Notes under the pieces: model-generated | The model's database searches: none | What the model saw: only the letters and a program-made list of their open reading frames with translations | Told to the model about the DNA's origin: nothing | Position numbers and translations under genes: made by a program | Assembly: GCA_045542115.1 (NCBI GenBank) | Contig: JAZQKK010000014.1 | Location: 120,617 to 184,616, forward strand | Direction: 5' to 3' | DNA: 64,000 bases | DNA from: Eubacteriales bacterium | Lineage (GTDB): Bacteria; Bacillota; Clostridia; Oscillospirales; UBA644 | Part shown: positions 12,329 to 33,750 of the stretch, in pieces | Numbering within the stretch: position 1 is the first letter of the stretch | Layout: each line of letters begins with the position of its first letter

Positions 12329-13342
12329 TCACCGTGCCGAAAGTTCTATCAGATGAGCAATTCCGGGAACCGATTCCCCTTGCATAATACTGGTAGGACT
12401 CATCAGTGCCCCCGTTCCCATCACAAGAACCCGGTTCCATTTTCCCCGACGCATTTCCGGAAGCACGTATCCGCACAACACCGACGCCACGCAACCGCAT
12501 CCCGAACCGCCGGAATGGACATCCTGTGTCTTGGGGTCAAAAATCATACAACCGCAATCCCGATACCGTTCCGTCAGAATAATTCCGTCTTGTTTAAGCA
12601 ATTCTCCCAAAAGCCTTGCCCCGATGTGCCCCAAATCTCCGGAAAGAATCAAATCGTAGTCTTCGGGAGACGTATGCGTATCGTCCAAAAACCGCTTTAA
12701 CGTCAATGCCGCCGCAGGAGCCATCGCAGCCCCCATATTGGCCATATCGGTAATATTCATATCAATAATCGCGCCGGGACAGACCCGAGAGATTTTGACC
12801 CCTTCTCCGGACGCAGCCACCACCGCACACCCGGAACCGGTCACGGTCCATTGGGCAGACTGAGGGCGAAATCCACCGTATTCCAAAGGGAACCGGTACT
12901 GTCGCTCCGAAGAACAAAAGTGGGAACTGGTCACAGCGGCGCATTGGTCGGCAAATCCTCCGTCAATGGCAAGGGAGGATAGAATCAGCCCTTCCACCAT
13001 TGTTGAACACGCTCCGTACAGGCCAAAAAACTGTACCCCGCTATCACGAAGGCTATAATTAGAACCAATACATTGATTGAGAAGGTCACCCGCGAACACA
13101 AAGTCAAGATCTTTTTCCAATATTTTTGCTTCTTGAAAAGCATATTTCATCGCCTCTTTCTGCAAAAAGCTTTCCGCTTTTTCAAAACTGCTTTCCCCAC
13201 AATATTCATCTTCCTGCCAATGGTCGAAATACTGCCCCAAGGGACCTTCTTTTTCTTTTCGTCCCACCATCGCGGCGGAAGAAAGGATCACCGGAGGGTG
13301 TTCCAAACGGTAGGTTCCGCTTCCCATTTTTTTTCGGCTCAT
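12329..13342 (-). CDS. spoVAD: stage V sporulation protein AD (thiolase-like fold)
   Basis: 337 aa. GDLLNQCIGSNY and GLYGACST are typical SpoVAD motifs. Confidence 0.9.
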   Translation of the reverse strand: MSRKKMGSGTYRLEHPPVILSSAAMVGRKEKEGPLGQYFDHWQEDEYCGESSFEKAESFLQKEAMKYAFQEAKILEKDLDFVFAGDLLNQCIGSNYSLRDSGVQFFGLYGACSTMVEGLILSSLAIDGGFADQCAAVTSSHFCSSERQYRFPLEYGGFRPQSAQWTVTGSGCAVVAASGEGVKISRVCPGAIIDMNITDMANMGAAMAPAAALTLKRFLDDTHTSPEDYDLILSGDLGHIGARLLGELLKQDGIILTERYRDCGCMIFDPKTQDVHSGGSGCGCVASVLCGYVLPEMRRGKWNRVLVMGTGALMSPTSIMQGESVPGIAHLIELSAR

Positions 13343-18224: not shown

Positions 18225-18265
18225 AAAAACGGTGCCGAAGAAACTCTTCGGCACCAATTTTATTT
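18223..18265. terminator. bidirectional terminator shared by the small ORF (+) and the GH2 gene (-)
   Basis: GGTGCCGAAG-aaact-CTTCGGCACC 10-bp stem flanked by A7 and a T-rich run. Confidence 0.8.
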
Positions 18266-18266
18266 G

Positions 18267-21200
18267 TTATTTGTACCAGTTATTACCGGCTTCAATATTG
18301 ACCTTCAAATCGCTGTCATTTGCAAAATTCCACTTCTGGATGGCGAGAGATTCCCAAGCCTGAACGGTGAGAACCGTAGCGCTGTCCACAGAACGAAGAG
18401 TCAACGCCTTGTTGGTAGCGGTATTAACGATACCGTACATACCGTCGCAAGCGACGACAGACCAAATCTGTTCTGCCGCATCGGTGGCATCGGACTGAAC
18501 CAATCCGGTTTCGGAAACGGTCAGGGCTTTTCCGGTCTGCTTATTTACGATCAGGTATCCGTCCTGAGCAGGAACGAAGGTCCACATCTGCGTAGCGGCG
18601 GGAAGCAATTCCCACTGGGTGACGTAGTAATCTGCACCTACCCATTCCTTCACGTCGGCGGCGGTGTAGCGCTTCGCGGCGGAGATGGACTGGTAGTTAT
18701 TCCAGTTCACGCGGGTGGGATAGTTCCGGGCACGGAAGGCCTGGTCTTCCACCAAGGAGTTGGAATAGGTCATATTGTCTACGACGGTCAGATATTTTCC
18801 GGACAGAGCATTCTGGATCCGAATCCGGGAAGGATCGTTTTCGTCCGAGATAATGGTCCACTTGGACTGATTGTCGGAACGAGCTGCCTTCAAGGCCAAG
18901 CGTGCACCGGCATTGGTGAAGCCTTCGGCACCGGCGATATACAGAGAATAGTAACCGCCCATACCGTAGTTGTTTGCAAACAACTGGCTATCTTCATAGG
19001 TCCAGTTCTGCCAACGGAGGTTGAGATATTTTGCAAGCGTCAATTCCACTTCCGCAGGAGAAGCACCGGAAGAGTCCTTGGAAACAGGAGACAAATACAG
19101 CCCCTTGGAAAGGCTCTTGATACGGAAGGCATCCGCAACGTTGATATCTGCGGCGTTTTCCTTAATCCAGTACTGAGAGTCATTGCCCAAAGCATCTTGA
19201 ATTGCCACAGTCCCGTCAGCAAGAACCGACAGATACGTGGAAGAAGAAGCGGCATTGGTCAGAGCGAAGGTATTGTTGGGAAGAGTAAGGGTCTCTTCCG
19301 CGGTAAGAGTGGTTCCGCTGTTCAAAACAGTTTTACTGATGGCATCGGCATCATAACCGGAAGTCACAGGTACGATACGGAAGGAATAGGTGTAGTTCAC
19401 ACCGGGTTCGATGTACTTACCGTCGGAATATTCCTGGTCAAACAGAGAGTTCGCATTGATACCCTTCTGCTGACCGATGACACGGAGGACCGTATCCTTC
19501 TTATCCGCAACATTGCCGGACAAAACGTAGCCCGCTTCGGTCCAGGGATAATCCTTGGAAACGTTCACTGCAAACAGGTCGGTATCACTGGTAATAACGA
19601 TACCGCTTCCGTCGGCCCGTTCCAGAGCCATCCAACGAACTTCGGACTTATCGCCAGAACCGGTGGAATACAGATATTCATCCCCCAGCTGGTCAACGAT
19701 GGCAACGTCCTTATAAATACCCACGCGATTATCAGCCTTCTTGTCGCTGAAAGATTCGCCGGGGCCCATACCGAACCAGCTCATCTTCTTAAACTCGGAG
19801 GTCAGCGTCATCACGGAAGAAAGTTCCATCGGAACGGTGGACTTCACGGTGGGCTGATATCTTACAGAGACCTGAATCTCACCATCTGCGTAAACGTCGT
19901 AAACTACCGTGTAATAAGTATCGTAAGAGAATGCTCTCATCTTCTGGACAGGATAGGTGACCCAGACGTAATCCAGTTCAATACGGTACTGCGTGTCGGA
20001 AACTTTTGTAATCTTGTAGTCGTTGGGAAGGGTCTTGGTTTCCGTATAATTCTGAGAAAGACTGGTCAGAACGTTGCGGGAAGTCGCGGACAGAGAGGAA
20101 GAGAGCAGGTCTCCGCCGGTGGGTTTCCGCAACAGGTTGGAAATCATAGAAGGAGTAAAGGTATCTCCGTCTACGAAGATATCTTTTCCGCCAACGGAAT
20201 ACTTGGTAATCAGACCGGTATCCCCATTCAAACGGAAGGAAAGGTTTCCATTTTCCAACAGAATGACCGAGGCACCCTTATAAGATTCGGGCACTTCGGG
20301 GAGAAGTTCCATATCCGTATCTTTGACTTCGGGTTCTTTATCCACGGGAGCGGGGCCCATAATGGGATTATCCTCTTCGTCAAGCCCCACTTCAACGGCA
20401 TTACGAGCGGGGTCGGTACGGAAAGGAATGTCGGACGATTCGTTCGCATTCAGAGCATAAACATACTGTGTTCCGGCGGGAACGCCTGCCATATCAACCT
20501 TGGTGGTCAACGTAACGTAAGCGGCATATTTCGCGTCTGCGGCAGCGCCGTTCGTATTGATGGGAAGGGTAATCAGGTGATTCTTTGCTCCGCCGGGAAC
20601 GTTGAGATCCATCGAGCCTTCGCTGTAAACGATCCAGCGGGGAGTTTCCCACAATTCGTGCCGTTCGTATACCGTCCAAGCGATGGTATACAAATCTTTA
20701 AAGTTGTTCTGAGAAGGATTGGAGACGTAAAGCTGACCCTTAGAGAAGGTATAGCTGGAAAGATACACTTCGGGGGCCTGGAAGACCGAAAGGGTCAAGG
20801 CATCACCGGTATGGTCTTTCACCGTACCGTCTTTGGAAACGGAAGCTTCGTCTTGGAGGGCGAACTGCTTCTGGAACACGGCAAAGTCGTTATTTTCTGC
20901 CCAGGAAGGAGCAGACTTATACTTCACGGTAAAGGAAACGTAGAAGTTTCCTTTGGTAATGTCGGTTCCGTAGTCTACCGTAACTTCGGCAGAAGCGCCG
21001 GCTTTCACGTTCAGATCGGAAAGGGTTCCGGTCTTGACGGAATTCTTGCCATCGGTCACTTCGTAAGAAATTTCGTAGCCGGAAAGATCGGTGAAGGAAT
21101 TCCGGTTCACGATCTTGAAGGTGCCGGCCTTGGCGTCAACGACCACCACATTCACGGGAGACAGGGCATTTTTCAGTTCTACGGCATCGGATTGCAGTTT

Positions 21201-23216
21201 ACGGTCTGCCGACAGAACACCGGAAAGGGACTGATAAGCGTCCTTTGCGGAAGTTGCGGCATCGCCCCAACCACCGGCATAGGTCAGTTTGTACTGGTCT
21301 GCCGTTTCGGGACCGTAGGGAGAAGACTGCAAAATGGAAGAAGCTTCTCCGGCGTTGGTGGGCCAATAAATTGCATTATCGGACCAGTAAGAGAAGAATC
21401 CGCCTTGGAAATTGCTGTATTCATCCAACAGATTGGAGTAAGCACTGAAATTGGCACCGTTATTCAGAAGACCGCCTTTATTTTCTTGCAGAAGAATGGC
21501 CTTCTTGTTGTCAGCATCCTTTAACAACTGAACGAAATCGTTCAGAGAAAGGTCCGGAGTGATAACCACGTCGGAAGAAGACTCATCGTCATCGTAGATA
21601 ATCAAGCGGTTATCTGCGGAAGTAAGCCAGCTTCTGAGAACGGAGAAGTTGGACCCCATTCCGGAATTATTCCCTACCGTCCACATAATAACGGAGGCAC
21701 TGTTCTTGTCCCGATATACCACGTTCAAAAGACGGTCCAAGCAGGCGTTCTGCCAAACACTCTGGTCACCGGGGATGGAGGCTTCGTCTTTTTCACTGTA
21801 AGGATTGGAGTTCAGGCTCATATCGTCAATGACGTAGAGACCATATTCGTCACAAAGAGAAATGAATTCTTCGCTAAGGGGACGACCAGGAGAACGGACG
21901 GCGTTAACGTTCAATTCTTTCATTAACTTAATATCGGAAACCAGTTCTTCGGTAGAAACGGTCATCCCGGTAACGGGGCTGTTTTCGTTATAAAGAACCC
22001 CCCGCAACGTGATGATTTCACCGTTCAAAACTAAGTTCTGACGACCGTTATCGTCAATAACGATACCGACGGTCTTAAAGCCGATGCGTTTGCTTACGGT
22101 GTCAAGGACCTTATCACCGTCTTTCAATTCCAGAACAACGGTGTAAAGGTTGGGGGTTTCCGCACTCCACAGCTTGGGGCTGGGAACGGAAATACGGGAA
22201 CCGACTTCCCCAAGGTAAGCGTTCGCCGTGGTGGCGGGCTTTTCGGAGAAGTTGGGGGTAGCGCCAACCTTCGTGGGCTGCAAAACACAGTTTCCGGAAG
22301 CGTCGTAGACAGACATATCCACAGACAGACCGCCGGCGGGCTTGTTGTAAGAAGCCAAAGAAACCGTAACGTTCATCAAAGCGTCGTTTCCGCTCATCTG
22401 CATATCATAAGTAAAGTCCCGAATCTGGGTATCGGGGGCAGAATACAGATAAACGTCACGGTAAATACCGCCGAACTTGATGGAATCGTTTGCTTCCAAA
22501 TAGGAACCGTCGCAATATTTATACACTTCAAAGACAACCAGGTTATCTCCGCCGATATTCACCGCTTCGGTGATATTGAAGGTTTTTCCGGTATAACTGT
22601 CTTCCGCGTAACCAACCATTGCACCGTTCACGTAAACGTATACACAGGAAGCGACCCCTTCAAAGGTCACATATACCTGACGGCCGGACCAATCGGAAGG
22701 AACGTTGACGGTATTCCGATAAATCCCCACGGGATTGTAGGCTTCGGAAACATTGGGAGCAACCAGTTCTTTCCCCCAAGGATAAGTATTGTAGGTATAA
22801 GAAGGAGCATCGTACCCTTCCATTTCCCAGTTGGAAGGAATCGAGATTTTACCCCAGGTAGTCTCCCCTTTCTCATCGGTGCGAACGGTAGCGGAATCGG
22901 AAACGGTATAAACGTATTTCAGACTCTGATACCCTTCGGGCATAAGAGAAGGATTCAACGCGATGGAAAAATCCCATTCCCCATTCAGGGACTTGTAGTA
23001 AGGAGATGCGGCAAAATCTCCGCCCAACGCCTGTTCTACGGACTCATAAGGAATGAGTGTGGTAGAATACGGCTCTTTGTTTCGGCCGGCCGTTTCCGGG
23101 CTTCCGAACGCTTCACTTTCTTTGGTCAATCCCTTGACGTTGTTACAGGCGGAGAATACTCCCACCGCCAGTGCCAACACAAGGACCAGCAAAAGTGCCT
23201 TTGAAACGTGTTTCAT
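18267..23216 (-). CDS. 1649-aa LacZ-like glycoside hydrolase family 2 lipoprotein with C-terminal ricin-type (QxW) lectin repeats; canonical catalytic residues apparently degenerate
   Basis: Signal peptide with lipobox VGVFSAC. Collinear with LacZ across the sugar-binding domain (IPSNWEMEGYDAPSYTYNTYPW), the TIM barrel and domain 5. C-terminal QYW/SKW/QMW/QIW/QKW repeats. See the finding for the active-site substitutions. Confidence 0.85.
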   Translation of the reverse strand: MKHVSKALLLVLVLALAVGVFSACNNVKGLTKESEAFGSPETAGRNKEPYSTTLIPYESVEQALGGDFAASPYYKSLNGEWDFSIALNPSLMPEGYQSLKYVYTVSDSATVRTDEKGETTWGKISIPSNWEMEGYDAPSYTYNTYPWGKELVAPNVSEAYNPVGIYRNTVNVPSDWSGRQVYVTFEGVASCVYVYVNGAMVGYAEDSYTGKTFNITEAVNIGGDNLVVFEVYKYCDGSYLEANDSIKFGGIYRDVYLYSAPDTQIRDFTYDMQMSGNDALMNVTVSLASYNKPAGGLSVDMSVYDASGNCVLQPTKVGATPNFSEKPATTANAYLGEVGSRISVPSPKLWSAETPNLYTVVLELKDGDKVLDTVSKRIGFKTVGIVIDDNGRQNLVLNGEIITLRGVLYNENSPVTGMTVSTEELVSDIKLMKELNVNAVRSPGRPLSEEFISLCDEYGLYVIDDMSLNSNPYSEKDEASIPGDQSVWQNACLDRLLNVVYRDKNSASVIMWTVGNNSGMGSNFSVLRSWLTSADNRLIIYDDDESSSDVVITPDLSLNDFVQLLKDADNKKAILLQENKGGLLNNGANFSAYSNLLDEYSNFQGGFFSYWSDNAIYWPTNAGEASSILQSSPYGPETADQYKLTYAGGWGDAATSAKDAYQSLSGVLSADRKLQSDAVELKNALSPVNVVVVDAKAGTFKIVNRNSFTDLSGYEISYEVTDGKNSVKTGTLSDLNVKAGASAEVTVDYGTDITKGNFYVSFTVKYKSAPSWAENNDFAVFQKQFALQDEASVSKDGTVKDHTGDALTLSVFQAPEVYLSSYTFSKGQLYVSNPSQNNFKDLYTIAWTVYERHELWETPRWIVYSEGSMDLNVPGGAKNHLITLPINTNGAAADAKYAAYVTLTTKVDMAGVPAGTQYVYALNANESSDIPFRTDPARNAVEVGLDEEDNPIMGPAPVDKEPEVKDTDMELLPEVPESYKGASVILLENGNLSFRLNGDTGLITKYSVGGKDIFVDGDTFTPSMISNLLRKPTGGDLLSSSLSATSRNVLTSLSQNYTETKTLPNDYKITKVSDTQYRIELDYVWVTYPVQKMRAFSYDTYYTVVYDVYADGEIQVSVRYQPTVKSTVPMELSSVMTLTSEFKKMSWFGMGPGESFSDKKADNRVGIYKDVAIVDQLGDEYLYSTGSGDKSEVRWMALERADGSGIVITSDTDLFAVNVSKDYPWTEAGYVLSGNVADKKDTVLRVIGQQKGINANSLFDQEYSDGKYIEPGVNYTYSFRIVPVTSGYDADAISKTVLNSGTTLTAEETLTLPNNTFALTNAASSSTYLSVLADGTVAIQDALGNDSQYWIKENAADINVADAFRIKSLSKGLYLSPVSKDSSGASPAEVELTLAKYLNLRWQNWTYEDSQLFANNYGMGGYYSLYIAGAEGFTNAGARLALKAARSDNQSKWTIISDENDPSRIRIQNALSGKYLTVVDNMTYSNSLVEDQAFRARNYPTRVNWNNYQSISAAKRYTAADVKEWVGADYYVTQWELLPAATQMWTFVPAQDGYLIVNKQTGKALTVSETGLVQSDATDAAEQIWSVVACDGMYGIVNTATNKALTLRSVDSATVLTVQAWESLAIQKWNFANDSDLKVNIEAGNNWYK

Positions 23217-23485
23217 TTGAACATAACCTCCGTGTTTCTTTGCGATTCATTTCTCTTTGCACATCAGTATATTATAGATCAATATAAAGTCGTGCTACGA
23301 AGATTATATAATAGAGTTGTGGCAATTTAATGTCATTTCCAAGCCGAAAAGGTGTGGAATCGTGACTTTTTTATGAACACAAAGTTTTTTTAAAATGCAA
23401 AACTTAAAACGGGAATTTTTTCGCACAATTCTGTAATTTTTTTGCAAACTGACGAAAAAATCTTACCAAAACCCGGGATTTGACA

Positions 23486-23547: not shown

Positions 23548-24981
23548 ATGGCCGAAAAGACTGTAAAAGAAATCACGTCGATGGACGAGGACTTTACTCA
23601 ATGGTACACTGATATTTGCCTGAAAGCGGAATTGGTGGATTATTCCAGCGTAAAGGGTTGTATGATCATTCGTCCTTACGGATATGCAATCTGGGAAAAC
23701 ATCCAGAAAAATATGGACGCAATGTTTAAGGCGACAGGGCACGAAAACGTGTATATGCCGATGTTTATCCCGGAATCCCTTCTTCAAAAAGAAAAAGACC
23801 ACGTGGAAGGATTTGCCCCCGAAGTTGCTTTGGTGACCAAGGGCGGAAGCGAACCTTTGGCAGAACCCCTGGTGGTTCGCCCCACGTCGGAAACGTTGTT
23901 CTGCGAACACTTTTCCCACATCGTCCAATCTTGGAGAGATCTGCCGAAGCTGTACAACCAATGGTGCTCCGTGGTCCGCTGGGAAAAGACGACCCGACCC
24001 TTTTTACGTTCCCGGGAATTCCTGTGGCAAGAAGGACATACGGTCCACGCTACGGCGGAAGAAGCCAAAGAAGAAACGATTCGGATGCTGAACGTTTATA
24101 CCGACTTCTGCAAGAACTATCTTGCAATGCCGGTCATTCAGGGACAAAAGACCGAAAGTGACAAATTTGCCGGCGCGGAAGCGACCTACGCTATCGAAGC
24201 GTTGATGCACGACGGCGTTGCTCTGCAAGCGGGAACGTCTCACTATTTCGGCGACGGATTCCCCAAAGCCTTTGACATTCAGTATACCGACAAAAACAAC
24301 AAATTGCAATATTGCTATGAAACGTCTTGGGGGGTTACTACCCGCTTGATCGGGGCGTTTATTATGGTACACGGAGACAACAACGGTCTGGTCATTCCTC
24401 CCCGAATCGCTCCCACCCAAGTAGTCGTCATTCCCGTGGCAATGCACAAGCCCGGCGTTTTGGATAAGGCGTCGGAAATCCAGGAAAAATTGGCCGCTGC
24501 CGGAATCCGGGTGAAGATGGATTCTTCGGAACAGTCCCCCGGCTGGAAGTTTGCGGAATACGAAATGAAGGGCGTGCCCCTTCGGCTGGAAATCGGGCCG
24601 AGAGACATTGAGAACAACGTTTGCGTTATTGCCCGTCGGGACACCGGAGAAAAGATGACCGTCTCTTTGGACGAAATTGAAACCAAGATTCCCGAGCTTT
24701 TAGATACCATCCACAACGATATGTACGAAAAAGCGTTGAAGCATCGGAACGAAAAGACCTACGTTGCCCGGAACAAAGAAGAACTGAAAGAAATTACCGA
24801 TACCAAACAAGGCTTTATCAAAACGATGTGGTGCGGAGACCCGGAATGTGAAGACAAAGTCCGGGAAGAATTTGGAGTTCGTTCCCGCTGTATTCCCTTT
24901 GAACAGGAAGAGCTGAGCGACAAATGTGTCTGCTGCGGAAAACCTGCCAAATATATGCTTTATTGGGGCAAACAATATTAA
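23548..24981 (+). CDS. proS: proline--tRNA ligase (archaeal/eukaryotic-like short type)
   Basis: 477 aa. Class II motifs, anticodon-binding domain and C-terminal zinc-like CxxC...CxxC region ending in WGKQY. Confidence 0.95.
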
Positions 24982-30736: not shown

Positions 30737-31797
30737 TCGGAGACCAAAAAGCCCTCCGGGGTAAGAGCAAAACGCTCTTGGGTCATTGTGGCAAACCCTT
30801 CGGAGCAAAGTCGCGCTGCGAACGCTTGTTTTTCCGGGGGAATGAGTGCGGCGGGAATTCCTTCTGAGAGTCGTAAGCCTAAAAAAACCGCTTCTTTTTT
30901 CGCCTCTTCCCGATCGATCACTTCGTCAAGTACCGACTGCAAATGCCCTGCTTTGGCACAGAATTCGGAGGTGTCGGCAGGAATATGATACCGAACACCG
31001 TCGCAGTATCCGGACGCTCCCGGACCGAAGGCAAGATATTCTCCACCCTTCCAATAAACGGTGTTATGCTTTGCCCGGAATCCGGGTTTTGCAAAGTTGG
31101 ATATTTCGTAATGTTCATATCCGGCCTCGGCCAGCAATTGATGGGCAATCAAGTAATGCTCCCGTTGGACCTCGTCCGGAGCATCTTTCATTCCCTGTTT
31201 TCCAAACACCGATTCCGCCTCGATTTTCAGAAGATAGACCGAACAGTGTTGCGGGGAAAGTGCAATCAATTGTTTTAAATCTTCTCTCAGGTCTTCGTTT
31301 GTTTCTTCGGGAAGGGCCATCATCAAATCCAAACTGATATTCCGAAATCCGACCTTTTGCAACGTTTGGTAAGATTCCAATGCTTTGGCCCGATCGTGGA
31401 GTCGTCCCAAACGGAAAAGGTACTTGTCCGAAAAGGTCTGAACTCCCATACTGACCCTGTCTACGCCGGCGTCTAACCAGGTCTTGGCGAGGGACTCAGT
31501 CACACTTTCGGGATTACATTCCACGGTAAATTCTTCACAGTCGGATAAATCAAAGGTGGTTTTTAACGCATCTACAACGGCAAGGAACTCCGTTTCCGAC
31601 AAAAGCGACGGGGTTCCGCCACCGAAATACACCGTCCGGACGACATTGCCTGCCTTCGGACTGTTTTTTATTTGTTCGCACAATGCCTGAACATAGGAAG
31701 AAACCGCCCCGGAGGTGGCTGGGGCGGAATAAAAATCGCAGTAATTACATTTTCTTCGGCAAAAGGGTACGTGTAGATAGACCGAAAGATTACTCAT
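30703..31797 (-). CDS. hemW: radical SAM heme chaperone HemW (HemN-like, oxygen-independent coproporphyrinogen oxidase family)
   Basis: Start moved to [24 protein letters not shown] (ATG 31797, 8-nt overlap with the lepA stop). CxxxCxxC cluster. lepA-hemW synteny is common. Confidence 0.85.
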
Positions 31798-33595
31798 CCA
31801 ATTTAAGAACGGCCATAAAGGCTTCCTGGGGAACTTCGATGGTTCCCAGCTGCCGCATCCGTTTCTTCCCTTCCTTTTGTTTTTCCAACAGTTTCTTTTT
31901 CCGGGTAATATCCCCGCCGTAACATTTGGCAAGCACGTCTTTACGCATTGCACGAACGGTCTCCCGGGCAATGATCTTCGACCCAATGGCCGCTTGTATG
32001 GGAACTTCGAACAACTGACGGGGGATATTATCCTTTAACTTTTCTGCCAATTTACGGCCTCTGGCATAAGCGCGCTCCGAAGGAACGATAAAAGACAAGG
32101 CGTCCACCACTTCCCCGTTGAGCAGGATATCCAGCTTGACCAAATCGCTCTTGACGTAATGAGAAAACTCGTAGTCCAAAGAAGCGTATCCCCGGGTACG
32201 GGCTTTCAGAGTATCAAAGAAATCGTAAATTATCTCGTTTAAGGGCATATCGTAATGCAAGTCCACACGGGATGCGTCGATATATTCCATCGTTTTAAAA
32301 ACGCCCCGGCGTTCTTTACACAAATCCATTACCGTTCCCACGAATTCCGAGGGGGCGATAATGTCGGTCTTTACGATAGGTTCTTCCGCCTCAATGATGG
32401 AACCGGGCGAAGGATAGTTTGTGGGATTGTCGATATAAACGGTACTTCCATCTGCCATCGTCAGCCGATACACGACGCCGGGGGCAGTGGTAATCAAATC
32501 CAGATTAAATTCCCGTTCGATACGCTCCTGCATAATCTCCATATGAAGAAGGCCCAAAAATCCGCAACGGAATCCAAACCCAAGGGCAATGGAGTGTTCC
32601 GGCTCGTAGGTCATAGAAGCGTCGTTTAAGCTCAGTTTATCCAAGGCGTCCCGCAAATCTTCATACCGGGAGCCATCGGCACAATAGATACCGCAATACA
32701 CCATCGGATTGGCTTTTTTATAACCGGGCAACGGTGCATCGGCAGGGACGTCCGCCAAGGTCACGGTATCCCCGACCCGGGTATCGCTGACGGTCTTAAT
32801 GCTGGCCATAATATATCCGACTTCTCCGGCCCGAAGCGTGTCCGCCGGACGGCATCCGAAGGGAGATAAATAGCCGATCTCCACCACGTCGAATTCCGCT
32901 CCGGTGGCCATCATACGGATCCGCTGTCCCTTTGAAAGTGTCCCGTCCTTCACGCGAACGTAGACGACGACCCCGCGGTAGGCATCGTAATAGGAATCGA
33001 AAATCAAGGCTTTTAAAGGCGCTTCCGGGTCCCCTTTCGGAGGGGGAACATCCCGAACCACTTGCTCCAAAACGTCCTGAATGTTAATGCCGTTTTTGGC
33101 AGAAATCCGCGGCGCTTCTTCCGCCGGAATTCCAATCGTATCTTCAATTTCCCGAATGACCCGGTCCGGGTCTGCGGCGGGAAGGTCAATTTTGTTGATA
33201 ACAGGAAGGATCTCCAAATCTCCATCGATGGCAAGGTAGGTGTTTGCCAAAGTCTGAGCTTCAATTCCCTGGGAGGCATCCACCACCAAAAGAGCCCCTT
33301 CGCAAGCGGCAAGCGCCCGGGAAACTTCGTAGTGGAAGTCCACGTGACCGGGGGTGTCAATGAGATTCAGGGTGTACGTCTCTCCGTCGGAGGCCTTGTA
33401 CTCCAATTTTACGGCACGGGCCTTAATGGTAATGCCGTGTTCTTTTTCCAGGTCCATATTGTCTAAGACCTGGTCTTCCATTTCCCGCTTTTCGACCGTC
33501 TCGGTCAGCTCCAAAAGGCGGTCCGCCAAGGTGGATTTCCCGTGGTCGATGTGGGCGATGATGGAAAAATTGCGGATTTTGGAAATATCGTACAT
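31790..33595 (-). CDS. lepA: translation elongation factor 4 (LepA)
   Basis: Start moved to [28 protein letters not shown] (ATG 33595) behind GGAGGA. Ends with the characteristic LepA C-terminal domain. Confidence 0.95.
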
Positions 33596-33750
33596 TCTGT
33601 TCCTCCGAATGGAATGGTTTTTCTCGAAAATTCTCTTTCTATTATATCCGAATCTTTTGATTTTGTCAAGCATTTCTTTCAATTTTGACTTGATTTTCTG
33701 TTATAAATATGTTATAATAATTATAAATACGAAAGAAAGGAGGACAACCT

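Follow-up and report, generated by a model that had tools for sequence, protein, structure and literature searches.

The stretch of DNA analysed here ("the window", 64,000 nucleotides of contig JAZQKK010000014.1 in assembly GCA_045542115.1 of a Eubacteriales bacterium) carries on its minus strand a gene for a lipoprotein of 1649 amino acids that is derived from the LacZ-type enzymes of glycoside hydrolase family 2 (GH2) and that ends in a tandem beta-trefoil. A comparison of this protein with E. coli LacZ and with its own orthologues leads us to conclude that it is probably a non-catalytic descendant of the LacZ-type GH2 enzymes, namely a lipid-anchored scaffold that bears a beta-trefoil binding head, and that it is very probably not a beta-galactosidase. 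All five domains of the LacZ architecture are still in place, and purifying selection acts on them. At the same time, the acid/base residue, both remaining Mg2+ ligands, the transition-state and -1-subsite residues and the so-called 794 loop have been lost in the protein itself and in all orthologues, and the positions concerned drift freely.

The LacZ-like part of the protein is recognised without ambiguity (coordinates and Pfam matches in Table 1). The Pfam matches to the GH2 N-terminal, immunoglobulin (Ig)-like and TIM-barrel domains all exceed their gathering cut-offs, which places the protein within GH2 in terms of sequence and fold, and together with LacZ_4 and Bgal_small_N they make up the LacZ-type five-domain architecture. 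An earlier description made from the letters alone (hereafter the sequence-only reading) had proposed such a LacZ-collinear lipoprotein, and the peptides that it quoted as fold-defining are all found in the translation. The closest relatives of known structure, as identified with phmmer, are the beta-galactosidase of Thermotoga maritima (6SD0, E 4e-89) and E. coli LacZ (E 1e-69). An AlphaFold2 model of residues 74-1273 reached a mean predicted local distance difference test score (pLDDT) of 90 and a predicted template-modelling score (pTM) of 0.85, and in Foldseek it superposed on E. coli LacZ (1DP0/6CVM) across the five domains with a template-modelling score (TM) of 0.81 normalised to LacZ. 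In contrast to E. coli LacZ, the protein has an extra all-beta Ig-like domain between domains 4 and 5. Despite its likeness in fold, it falls below the thresholds of the NCBIfam LacZ-type models (NF052611, NF007074 and PRK09525 were compared): all 11 matches are under their cut-offs, the best one reaching 598.6 bits where 999 are required.

Within this architecture the domain 1 counterpart of LacZ D201 is kept (D244), N102 is replaced by Y142, and 14% of the columns of this domain are invariant in the family. Domain 3, a degenerate (beta/alpha)8 barrel, bears all the former catalytic positions. In domain 2 a loop at residues ~325-345 contains a motif that is conserved in the family (KTANAY...VGGRV, with R341 invariant). 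The equivalent loop of LacZ enters the active site of the neighbouring subunit, and by that analogy the conserved motif may reflect a retained LacZ-like oligomer interface.

To locate the functional positions, the protein was aligned by MAFFT with E. coli LacZ (the K-12 lacZ product from NC_000913, for which the residue numbers of the literature were checked against the expected residues) and with 120 database homologues. At the end of barrel strand 4, where the acid/base glutamate of clan GH-A is part of an Asn-Glu motif (N460-E461 in LacZ), the protein has N516 and N517, so that no glutamate is present; the two AAT codons lie exactly where the sequence-only reading had placed them. The Mg2+ ligands E416 and H418 correspond to N469 and N471, i.e. 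the Mg2+ ligand positions read Asn/Asn/Asn. Similarly, H357 is replaced by N410, H391 by G444, Y503 by D555, H540 by G581, W568 by S609, F601 by Q662, N604 by S665 and W999 by F1259. When the residues of the Mg2+ site and the -1 subsite are taken together (E416, H418, E461, N102, D201, H357, H391, Y503, H540, W568, F601, N604 and W999), D201 is the only one of the 13 that is kept. In domain 5 the RAPLDND segment of LacZ is aligned by MAFFT with RKPTGGD, in agreement with what had been read by eye; R786 is retained as R1030 and N791 has become G1035. The column of G794, in the mobile loop, is a gap in 48 of the 49 family members described below, that is to say the 794 loop has been shortened. 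The nucleophile position (E537, at the end of barrel strand 7) is occupied by Glu578, so that the suspicion that this residue might survive was justified for the protein itself, but clade-mates have other residues there.

These assignments depend on the alignment register, which was obtained independently by phmmer against solved structures, by MAFFT with the genuine LacZ sequence and by hhalign of the family profile against a canonical GH2 profile (probability 100, E 2e-184, 1011 columns). The three methods agree for the positions in domains 1 to 4, with the hhalign comparison covering LacZ up to about residue 720, and the aligned blocks are held in place by conserved flanks (NAVRSPG, YVIDD, SVIMW..G, KKP...Q, QGGFF and LSGI..AD). 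They reproduce all the substitutions that had been listed by eye for H357, H391, E416, H418, E461, Y503 and H540, and the profile alignment in particular leaves the by-eye register unchanged, with Asn and not Glu at the acid/base position. A by-eye misregister was thereby rejected.

The loss is not peculiar to this one protein. A database search recovered 49 clusters (P0001-P0049, defined at 90% identity) of full-length relatives that share 35-100% identity with the protein, measure 1620-1740 amino acids and combine the GH2 and beta-trefoil parts throughout; P0001 is identical to the protein over its full length, and P0047 and P0049 comprise 407 and 189 member sequences. The next tier of matches consists of ordinary beta-galactosidases, most of about 1050 amino acids, that match the N-terminal half only, at 27-38% identity. 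We compared both groups at 15 LacZ positions (N102, D201, H357, R388, H391, E416, H418, N460, E461, Y503, E537, H540, W568, F601 and N604). Almost without exception these are kept in 70 of the 71 canonical matches; the outlier, P0050 (2695 amino acids, 27% identity), retains 13 of the 15 and has Gly at H357 and, outside this set, Tyr at W999. Against such constancy the substitutions in the protein go far beyond what chance would give. Conversely, the canonical set is absent from all 49 family members, in which D201 and R388 alone are retained. Expressed as the number of positions that match LacZ, the protein scores 4/15 and its relatives 3-5/15, versus 12-15/15 for most canonical representatives. 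Not one of the 49 family members has Glu at both catalytic positions, and which of the two was lost varies from subclade to subclade.

Moreover, the residues that replaced the canonical ones differ by subclade. Column 461 contains N, D, E, Q or H and column 537 contains D, S, N, T, E or Y; the Asn-Asn motif itself is not conserved among the orthologues. Within the protein's own clade, Asn and Asp occur at column 461 in a ratio of 10 to 12 among close relatives, a toggling that looks neutral. The column of Glu578 holds Asp in 20 of the 21 other clade members, among them the orthologue that is 80% identical, and Asn in the twenty-first; in the other clades it holds mostly Ser, Thr, Asn or Tyr, and Asp or Glu in a few. 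The entropy of the active-site columns is about 0 bits in canonical sequences versus 2.0-3.2 bits in the family, which corresponds to the 76th-99th percentile of the barrel columns, whereas the mean entropy of the barrel is alike in the two sets (1.25 versus 1.29 bits). Partitioning of the columns yielded 102 that are conserved in both groups, i.e. the fold skeleton, and 55 that are fixed in canonical GH2 and free in the family. The latter include every known catalytic, metal-binding and -1-subsite residue, among them N102, E416, H418, E461, M502, E537, Y538, H540, W568, D569, F601 and N604. The same partition revealed no newly conserved, repurposed pocket: there are 14 columns in which one conserved residue was switched for another, mostly conservatively (W to Y, R to K, E to D), and very few invariants that are specific to the family.

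With canonical GH2 as the reference, the family is monophyletic, and it is well separated from it. When 1.84 billion representatives were scanned exhaustively with HMMER, the family amounted to about ten clusters at 50% identity, after which the score dropped from 610 to 441 bits, and among the best 150 of these representatives there were no intermediates with a partial catalytic set. Two unrelated GH2 representatives, P0275 (1314 amino acids, 9/15) and P0334 (1073 amino acids, 7/15), deviate at some of the same positions (e.g. Y503H, E537D/A and W568S/G) and may be independent degenerations of GH2, an alignment error being possible. A further sequence, P0216 (3246 amino acids), was considered as a fusion of an active and a dead module and rejected as such; it has a signal peptide and two canonical LacZ modules one after the other, both apparently active, each with its SHYP, ETH, GNE and CEY motifs.

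Several observations weigh against a non-catalytic role. A call of pseudoenzyme that is made from sequence can be wrong when catalytic residues have migrated. In addition, Glu578 does occupy the nucleophile position in the protein, an Asp/Asp pair is present at 461/537 in about half of its own clade, and several distant subclades keep the Asn-Glu acid/base motif without the nucleophile, a combination reminiscent of substrate-assisted enzymes. Finally, the conservation of domains 1 and 3 might exceed what a passive spacer needs. The same kind of evidence would also fit the view that the protein is a glycosidase or transglycosidase with non-canonical chemistry. Such an enzyme could rely on Glu578 as the nucleophile with an acid/base that is exogenous or borne by the substrate, as in the GH1 myrosinases or in natural thioglycoligase-like enzymes, or it could have a substrate-assisted mechanism, as might apply to the subclades with Asn-Glu but without a nucleophile. 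In its favour, D244 (D201), E411 (E358) and R441 (R388) are invariant, as are the family-specific Y409, N410 and G444; purifying selection is strongest on the core of domains 1 to 3; and clades 1, 3, 5, 6, 8 and 9 keep Asn, Ser or Thr followed by Glu at 460/461. Nevertheless, no candidate catalytic residue is conserved across what is a single orthologous and syntenic family: Glu578 is not kept in the clade, its place being taken by Asp even at 80% identity, and the alternation of Asn and Asp at 461 between close relatives has a neutral appearance. Since the sugar-recognition set (H357, H391, Y503, H540, W568, F601, N604, W999 and N102) and the Mg2+ site are lost and variable, there is moreover no evident way in which a glycoside could be bound or distorted, and the residues that remain invariant are shared with canonical GH2 as part of the fold skeleton. 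We therefore consider non-canonical catalysis, which the sequence-only reading had offered as its alternative with the myrosinases as example, to be very unlikely.

The opposite extreme would be that the gene is a recently inactivated beta-galactosidase pseudogene, or that its aberrant active site is an artefact of misalignment or misassembly. The missing catalytic residues by themselves, and an antisense open reading frame of 1086 codons that overlaps the gene, could be taken in that sense. We can practically dismiss this explanation: it is refuted by the unbroken frame of 4950 nucleotides, by the 49 full-length orthologous clusters and by a ratio of nonsynonymous to synonymous substitutions (dN/dS) of about 0.1 in every domain. 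The lipobox is invariant, synteny is conserved, and the alignment methods concur on the register. The antisense frame is without support and looks like an ordinary shadow frame of the minus-strand gene, for which the family analysis has no need. Compared with six orthologues, dN/dS was about 0.10-0.17 overall and lowest, at 0.08-0.12, over domains 1 to 3 (dS exceeds 1, so that the ratios are approximate). Domains 1 and 3 are also the most conserved modules, with 47% identity to distant members and 13-14% invariant columns. The family thus combines the features by which we recognise a pseudoenzyme operationally: the catalytic motifs are absent, their absence is conserved in orthologues, and the sequence is under purifying selection.

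Downstream of the LacZ-like part lies the C-terminal region that the sequence-only reading had described as an array of QxW repeats. Pfam detects RicinB_lectin_2 (PF14200) here in three stretches (E 6.9e-16), QxW or SxW motifs occur at residues 1348, 1403, 1453, 1543, 1583 and 1627 (QxW at all of these except 1453), and an AlphaFold model of residues 1275-1649 (pLDDT 89) consists of two beta-trefoils, for which the best structural match is botulinum HA33 (E 9e-11). The region thus has the fold of the R-type lectins, i.e. a beta-trefoil with (QxW)3 repeats. Its family profile matches ThreeFoil (E 7e-13) and the carbohydrate-binding module (CBM) 13 of C. thermocellum 1,3Gal43A, CtCBM13 (E 3e-11); further significant matches are the non-lectins HA17 and cocaprin. 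From what is known of ricin B and CBM13, we take the sugar ligands of R-type lectins to be an Asp, an aromatic residue and an Asn at defined positions. Compared with ThreeFoil and CtCBM13, trefoil 2 has Thr instead of the Asp of "LDV", a non-aromatic residue instead of the aromatic one of "IQY/VQW", and Glu or Asp instead of the Asn of "DNQQW", and a by-eye reading of the family alignment found no "LDV"-type Asp in any of the six trefoil subdomains. The complete triad (Asp, aromatic, Asn or Gln), which is expected in at least one subdomain of a sugar-binding R-type module, is accordingly absent. What is conserved in the trefoils is the core of QxW, Gly and Leu residues, and in addition the tail at the C-terminus and the helical stretch that is inserted into trefoil 2.

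These findings bear on a second alternative, namely that the protein is a surface lectin or adhesin that recognises galactose-type glycans of the host or the diet by means of its ricin-type repeats and perhaps also of its dead active site, and in which an oligomeric LacZ-like body would add multivalent avidity, as happens with HA33 on the botulinum HA complex. It is a sub-case of the explanation as scaffold with binding head, and the missing ligand triad weakens it. The confident tandem beta-trefoil, with Gal/GalNAc/sialic-acid-binding HA33 as its top structural match, the RicinB_lectin_2 match, the extracytoplasmic location implied by the lipoprotein signal and the gut habitat of the hosts all fit such a role, and it is well established that pseudo-glycosidases can work as lectins (e.g. 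the GH18 chi-lectins). On the other hand, Thr, a non-aromatic residue and Glu/Asp stand at the ligand positions, the ligand Asp is found in none of the six subdomains, the conserved residues are those of the trefoil core, and the other significant trefoil matches, HA17 and cocaprin, are not lectins. The former -1 subsite ranks with the most variable regions of the barrel, unlike what one would expect of a retained sugar pocket; because it is hypervariable, the former galactose pocket is a poor candidate binding site. We regard a lectin or adhesin function as possible but doubtful. The sequence-only reading, which took the protein for a surface-anchored glycan-binding scaffold, thus holds with respect to the lipoprotein nature, the non-canonical active site and the candidate pseudoenzyme status, whereas its glycan-binding and adhesin half is not supported in the form proposed, as the ligand residues are missing. 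Binding of sugars by the trefoils may occur, yet it can not be deduced from the label "ricin".

Some further features of the C-terminal region deserve mention. The tail has a family-wide motif (dl.vNIEAG..W[FY]) in which G1644 is nearly invariant and W1647 invariant; it might act as a docking strand or be involved in sorting or in an interaction. In the region of the trefoil-2 insertion W1505, R1495, T1533, W1535 and P1539 are invariant or almost invariant in the family. A chitin-binding motif of the CBM5/12 type was considered for this insertion (residues ~1496-1542, RVNWNNYQSISAAKRYTAADVKEWVGADYYVTQW) and rejected, as the match to 2RTS, the chitin-binding domain from a Pyrococcus chitinase, is not significant (E 0.086) and the model is helical. 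A search for the trefoil pair in other architectures gave three short matches only, of which one is unrelated and two are PF14200-only proteins of about 290 amino acids that resemble C-terminal fragments of proteins of the family.

With regard to localisation, the signal peptide (MKHVSKALLLVLVLALAVGVFSA followed by Cys24) has Lys in its n-region, a hydrophobic h-region and a lipobox Cys, and is thereby that of a lipoprotein; the lipobox VGVFSAC, noted before, matches the core of PROSITE PS51257. This core is matched in 52 of 52 family sequences and the Cys is invariant, from which we predict that the mature form carries a lipid anchor and is located outside the cytoplasmic membrane. Taken together, the scaffold with binding head can be pictured as follows. 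In an uncultured lineage of spore-forming gut Clostridia the protein would be exported and then anchored via Cys24 on the outer face of the cytoplasmic membrane. Exaptation would have turned the GH2 body into a rigid scaffold or spacer, perhaps an oligomer as in the case of LacZ, that holds the beta-trefoil pair away from the membrane, and the trefoils and the conserved tail would constitute the ligand-binding head; beta-galactosides would not be hydrolysed. Because the canonical R-type sugar triad is absent, the ligand would be a glycan that is bound non-canonically, or a protein or a component of the cell envelope. A more far-reaching version, which we put forward tentatively, is that both carbohydrate modules, the complete LacZ body with its dead active site and the trefoil pair with its dead sugar sites, have been exapted. 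The product would be a conserved protein of the cell envelope that is passed on vertically and whose role, in an order-level lineage of uncultured gut Clostridia, does not concern carbohydrates. That role might, just as speculatively, be protein-binding or structural, for instance in the organisation of the wall or spore envelope or in the binding of host proteins. If true, the family would be the first of LacZ-type pseudoenzymes, and an example of a classic enzyme fold that is reused purely as architecture.

The genomic context is consistent with a stand-alone function. The gene looks monocistronic, with its own ribosome-binding site, promoter-like site and strong terminator (Table 1). Its neighbours are proS, genes for Fe-ADH-like, AP_endonuc_2 and M24 peptidase proteins, and the genes for SpoVAD and LepA. 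The divergently oriented proS is the only neighbour that is conserved among family loci; the adjacency is kept in 39 of 46 of them, at ProS identities that range from 97% down to 66%. Membership of a polysaccharide-utilisation locus or lac operon was considered and rejected, as the neighbours are housekeeping or unrelated genes without a transporter, regulator or glycosidase operon. On the basis of the conserved proS adjacency, the gene's own expression signals and the absence of an operon, the gene is best described as a vertically inherited single-gene unit under purifying selection. The presence of spoVAD suggests that the host is a spore-former, and together with lepA and the housekeeping neighbours it indicates that the region belongs to the chromosome of an endospore-forming member of the Clostridia and not to a mobile element. 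The carriers comprise about 39 GTDB species, all of them uncultured Clostridia, Eubacteriales or Oscillospiraceae known as metagenome-assembled genomes (MAGs) from the guts of deer, cattle and goats and from human gut samples (Hadza, UMGS, MGYG). In the clade of P0029 (loci L002-L004 and L020) the gene is found away from proS, with a polysaccharide deacetylase gene on one side and a gene for a D-Ala-D-Ala carboxypeptidase (Peptidase_S11/PBP5) on the other. Genes of the spoIIGA/sigE-like type lie close by, and a polysaccharide deacetylase gene also occurs beside proS in L005 and L006. These neighbours are a possible hint of a connection with the cell wall or the spore envelope.

Table 1. Position of the LacZ-derived lipoprotein gene, its domains and signals, and neighbouring features within the window
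Feature	Coordinates	Strand	Remarks
Complete coding sequence, LacZ-type GH2-derived lipoprotein with C-terminal tandem beta-trefoil	18267..23216	-	1649 amino acids plus stop
Lipoprotein signal peptide and lipobox	23145..23216	-	MKHVSKALLLVLVLALAVGVFSA followed by C24; PROSITE PS51257 core match
Domain 1, GH2 N-terminal jelly-roll, residues 75-262	22431..22994	-	Pfam PF02837, E 3.5e-30 (residues 75-261)
Domain 2, GH2 Ig-like, residues 263-385	22062..22430	-	PF00703, E 1.3e-16 (residues 264-381); model
Domain 3, degenerate (beta/alpha)8 TIM barrel, residues 386-692	21141..22061	-	PF02836, E 1.3e-42 (residues 393-689)
Codons AAT AAT, Asn516-Asn517	21666..21671	-	replace the Asn-Glu acid/base motif (N460-E461)
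Codon GAA, Glu578	21483..21485	-	at the LacZ E537 nucleophile position
Domain 4, LacZ_4 Ig-like, residues 693-790	20847..21140	-	PF16353 (residues 700-788); model
Extra all-beta Ig-like domain, residues 791-988	20253..20846	-	second, weaker PF16353 stretch; model pLDDT about 80-93
Domain 5, Bgal_small_N, residues 989-1285	19362..20252	-	PF02929, E 5.9e-28 (residues 989-1281)
Beta-trefoil 1, residues 1313-1462	18831..19280	-	QYW, QNW, SKW; model pLDDT 89; Foldseek HA33 E 9e-11
Beta-trefoil 2, residues 1463-1649	18270..18830	-	QMW, QIW, QKW; helical insertion ~1480-1530; conserved C-terminal tail
C-terminal tail motif, residues 1634-1649	18270..18317	-	
Shine-Dalgarno GGAGG	23227..23231	-	10 nt upstream of ATG; direct sequence reading
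Sigma-70-like promoter candidate ATGACA-17-TATTAT	23308..23336	-	divergent intergenic region shared with proS; consensus match only
Intrinsic terminator	18230..18256	-	12-bp stem with 7 GC pairs, T-run; begins 11 nt past the stop codon
proS (prolyl-tRNA synthetase), divergent neighbour	23548..24981	+	
Antisense open reading frame	18264..21524	+	1086 amino acids
SpoVAD	12329..13342	-	E 2e-137
LepA	31790..33682	-	

The existence of this family has a practical consequence. LacZ may be the glycosidase that has been studied most. GH2 genes are routinely tallied as "beta-galactosidase capacity" in surveys of gut metagenomes, and the family suggests that a homologue of LacZ can be well conserved over its full length and yet lack catalytic activity. 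Its members are labelled "beta-galactosidase", "DUF4981" or "RICIN domain-containing protein" in the sources, and as a result of such labels the counts of carbohydrate-active enzymes would be overstated for these uncultured Clostridia, that is for the MAGs from the human (Hadza) and ruminant gut. The family also constitutes a natural experiment on the LacZ fold, in which 102 skeleton columns stayed fixed and 55 function-linked columns drift. Moreover, a predicted surface lipoprotein of ~180 kDa that is conserved beside proS throughout a lineage is experimentally approachable. There is no evidence yet for a new mechanism; what we report is a family of "dead LacZ" proteins from gut bacteria of humans and ruminants, which is somewhat unexpected and apparently has not been described before. 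In the full-text literature that was searched, the coverage of which is incomplete, we found neither a GH2 or LacZ-type pseudoenzyme nor a description of this family.

When placed among known systems, the protein resembles the LacZ-type GH2 enzymes (E. coli LacZ, 1DP0; T. maritima LacZ, 6SD0) in its collinear series of jelly-roll, Ig-like domain, TIM barrel, Ig-like domain and beta-supersandwich, in the 102 shared skeleton columns and in the superposition of its model. It differs from them in that the acid/base Glu, the Mg2+ ligands, H357, H391, Y503, H540, W568, F601, N604, W999 and the 794 loop are missing. What it has in addition are the signal peptide of a lipoprotein, one more Ig-like domain between domains 4 and 5 and the two beta-trefoils at the C-terminus. 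Pseudoenzymes have arisen in other glycosidase families; Klotho is a GH1-like example. Others are the GH18 chitinase-like lectins (YKL-40/CHI3L1), BAM9 of GH14 and the GH28 pseudo-polygalacturonases of beetles (PMC6549527, PMC12046210, PMC10211241). All of these share with the present family a glycosidase fold that is under purifying selection, catalytic carboxylates that have been substituted and a function that has moved to binding or regulation, but they belong to other GH families and are mostly eukaryotic, and the chi-lectins keep a conserved ligand-binding groove whereas the old pocket of the present family is hypervariable.

The C-terminal part has its counterparts in botulinum HA33/HA1 (2E4M, 3AH4) and in CBM13 or R-type modules (ThreeFoil, 3PG0; CtCBM13, 3VSF), with which it has two consecutive (QxW)3 beta-trefoils in common. 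In contrast to these lectins, the Asp, aromatic and Asn sugar ligands are not conserved in the family, trefoil 2 contains a helical insertion, and the orientation of the trefoils relative to each other is different (global TM about 0.3). A last comparison concerns BgaA of S. pneumoniae, which is catalytically active, LPXTG-anchored and equipped with CBM71 modules. It has been described as a GH2 beta-galactosidase of the cell surface that also acts as an adhesin (PMC4161441). Both are very large, surface-attached GH2 proteins of Gram-positive bacteria with appended non-catalytic modules, and the protein described here is set apart from BgaA by its lipid anchor, its degenerate active site and its beta-trefoils.

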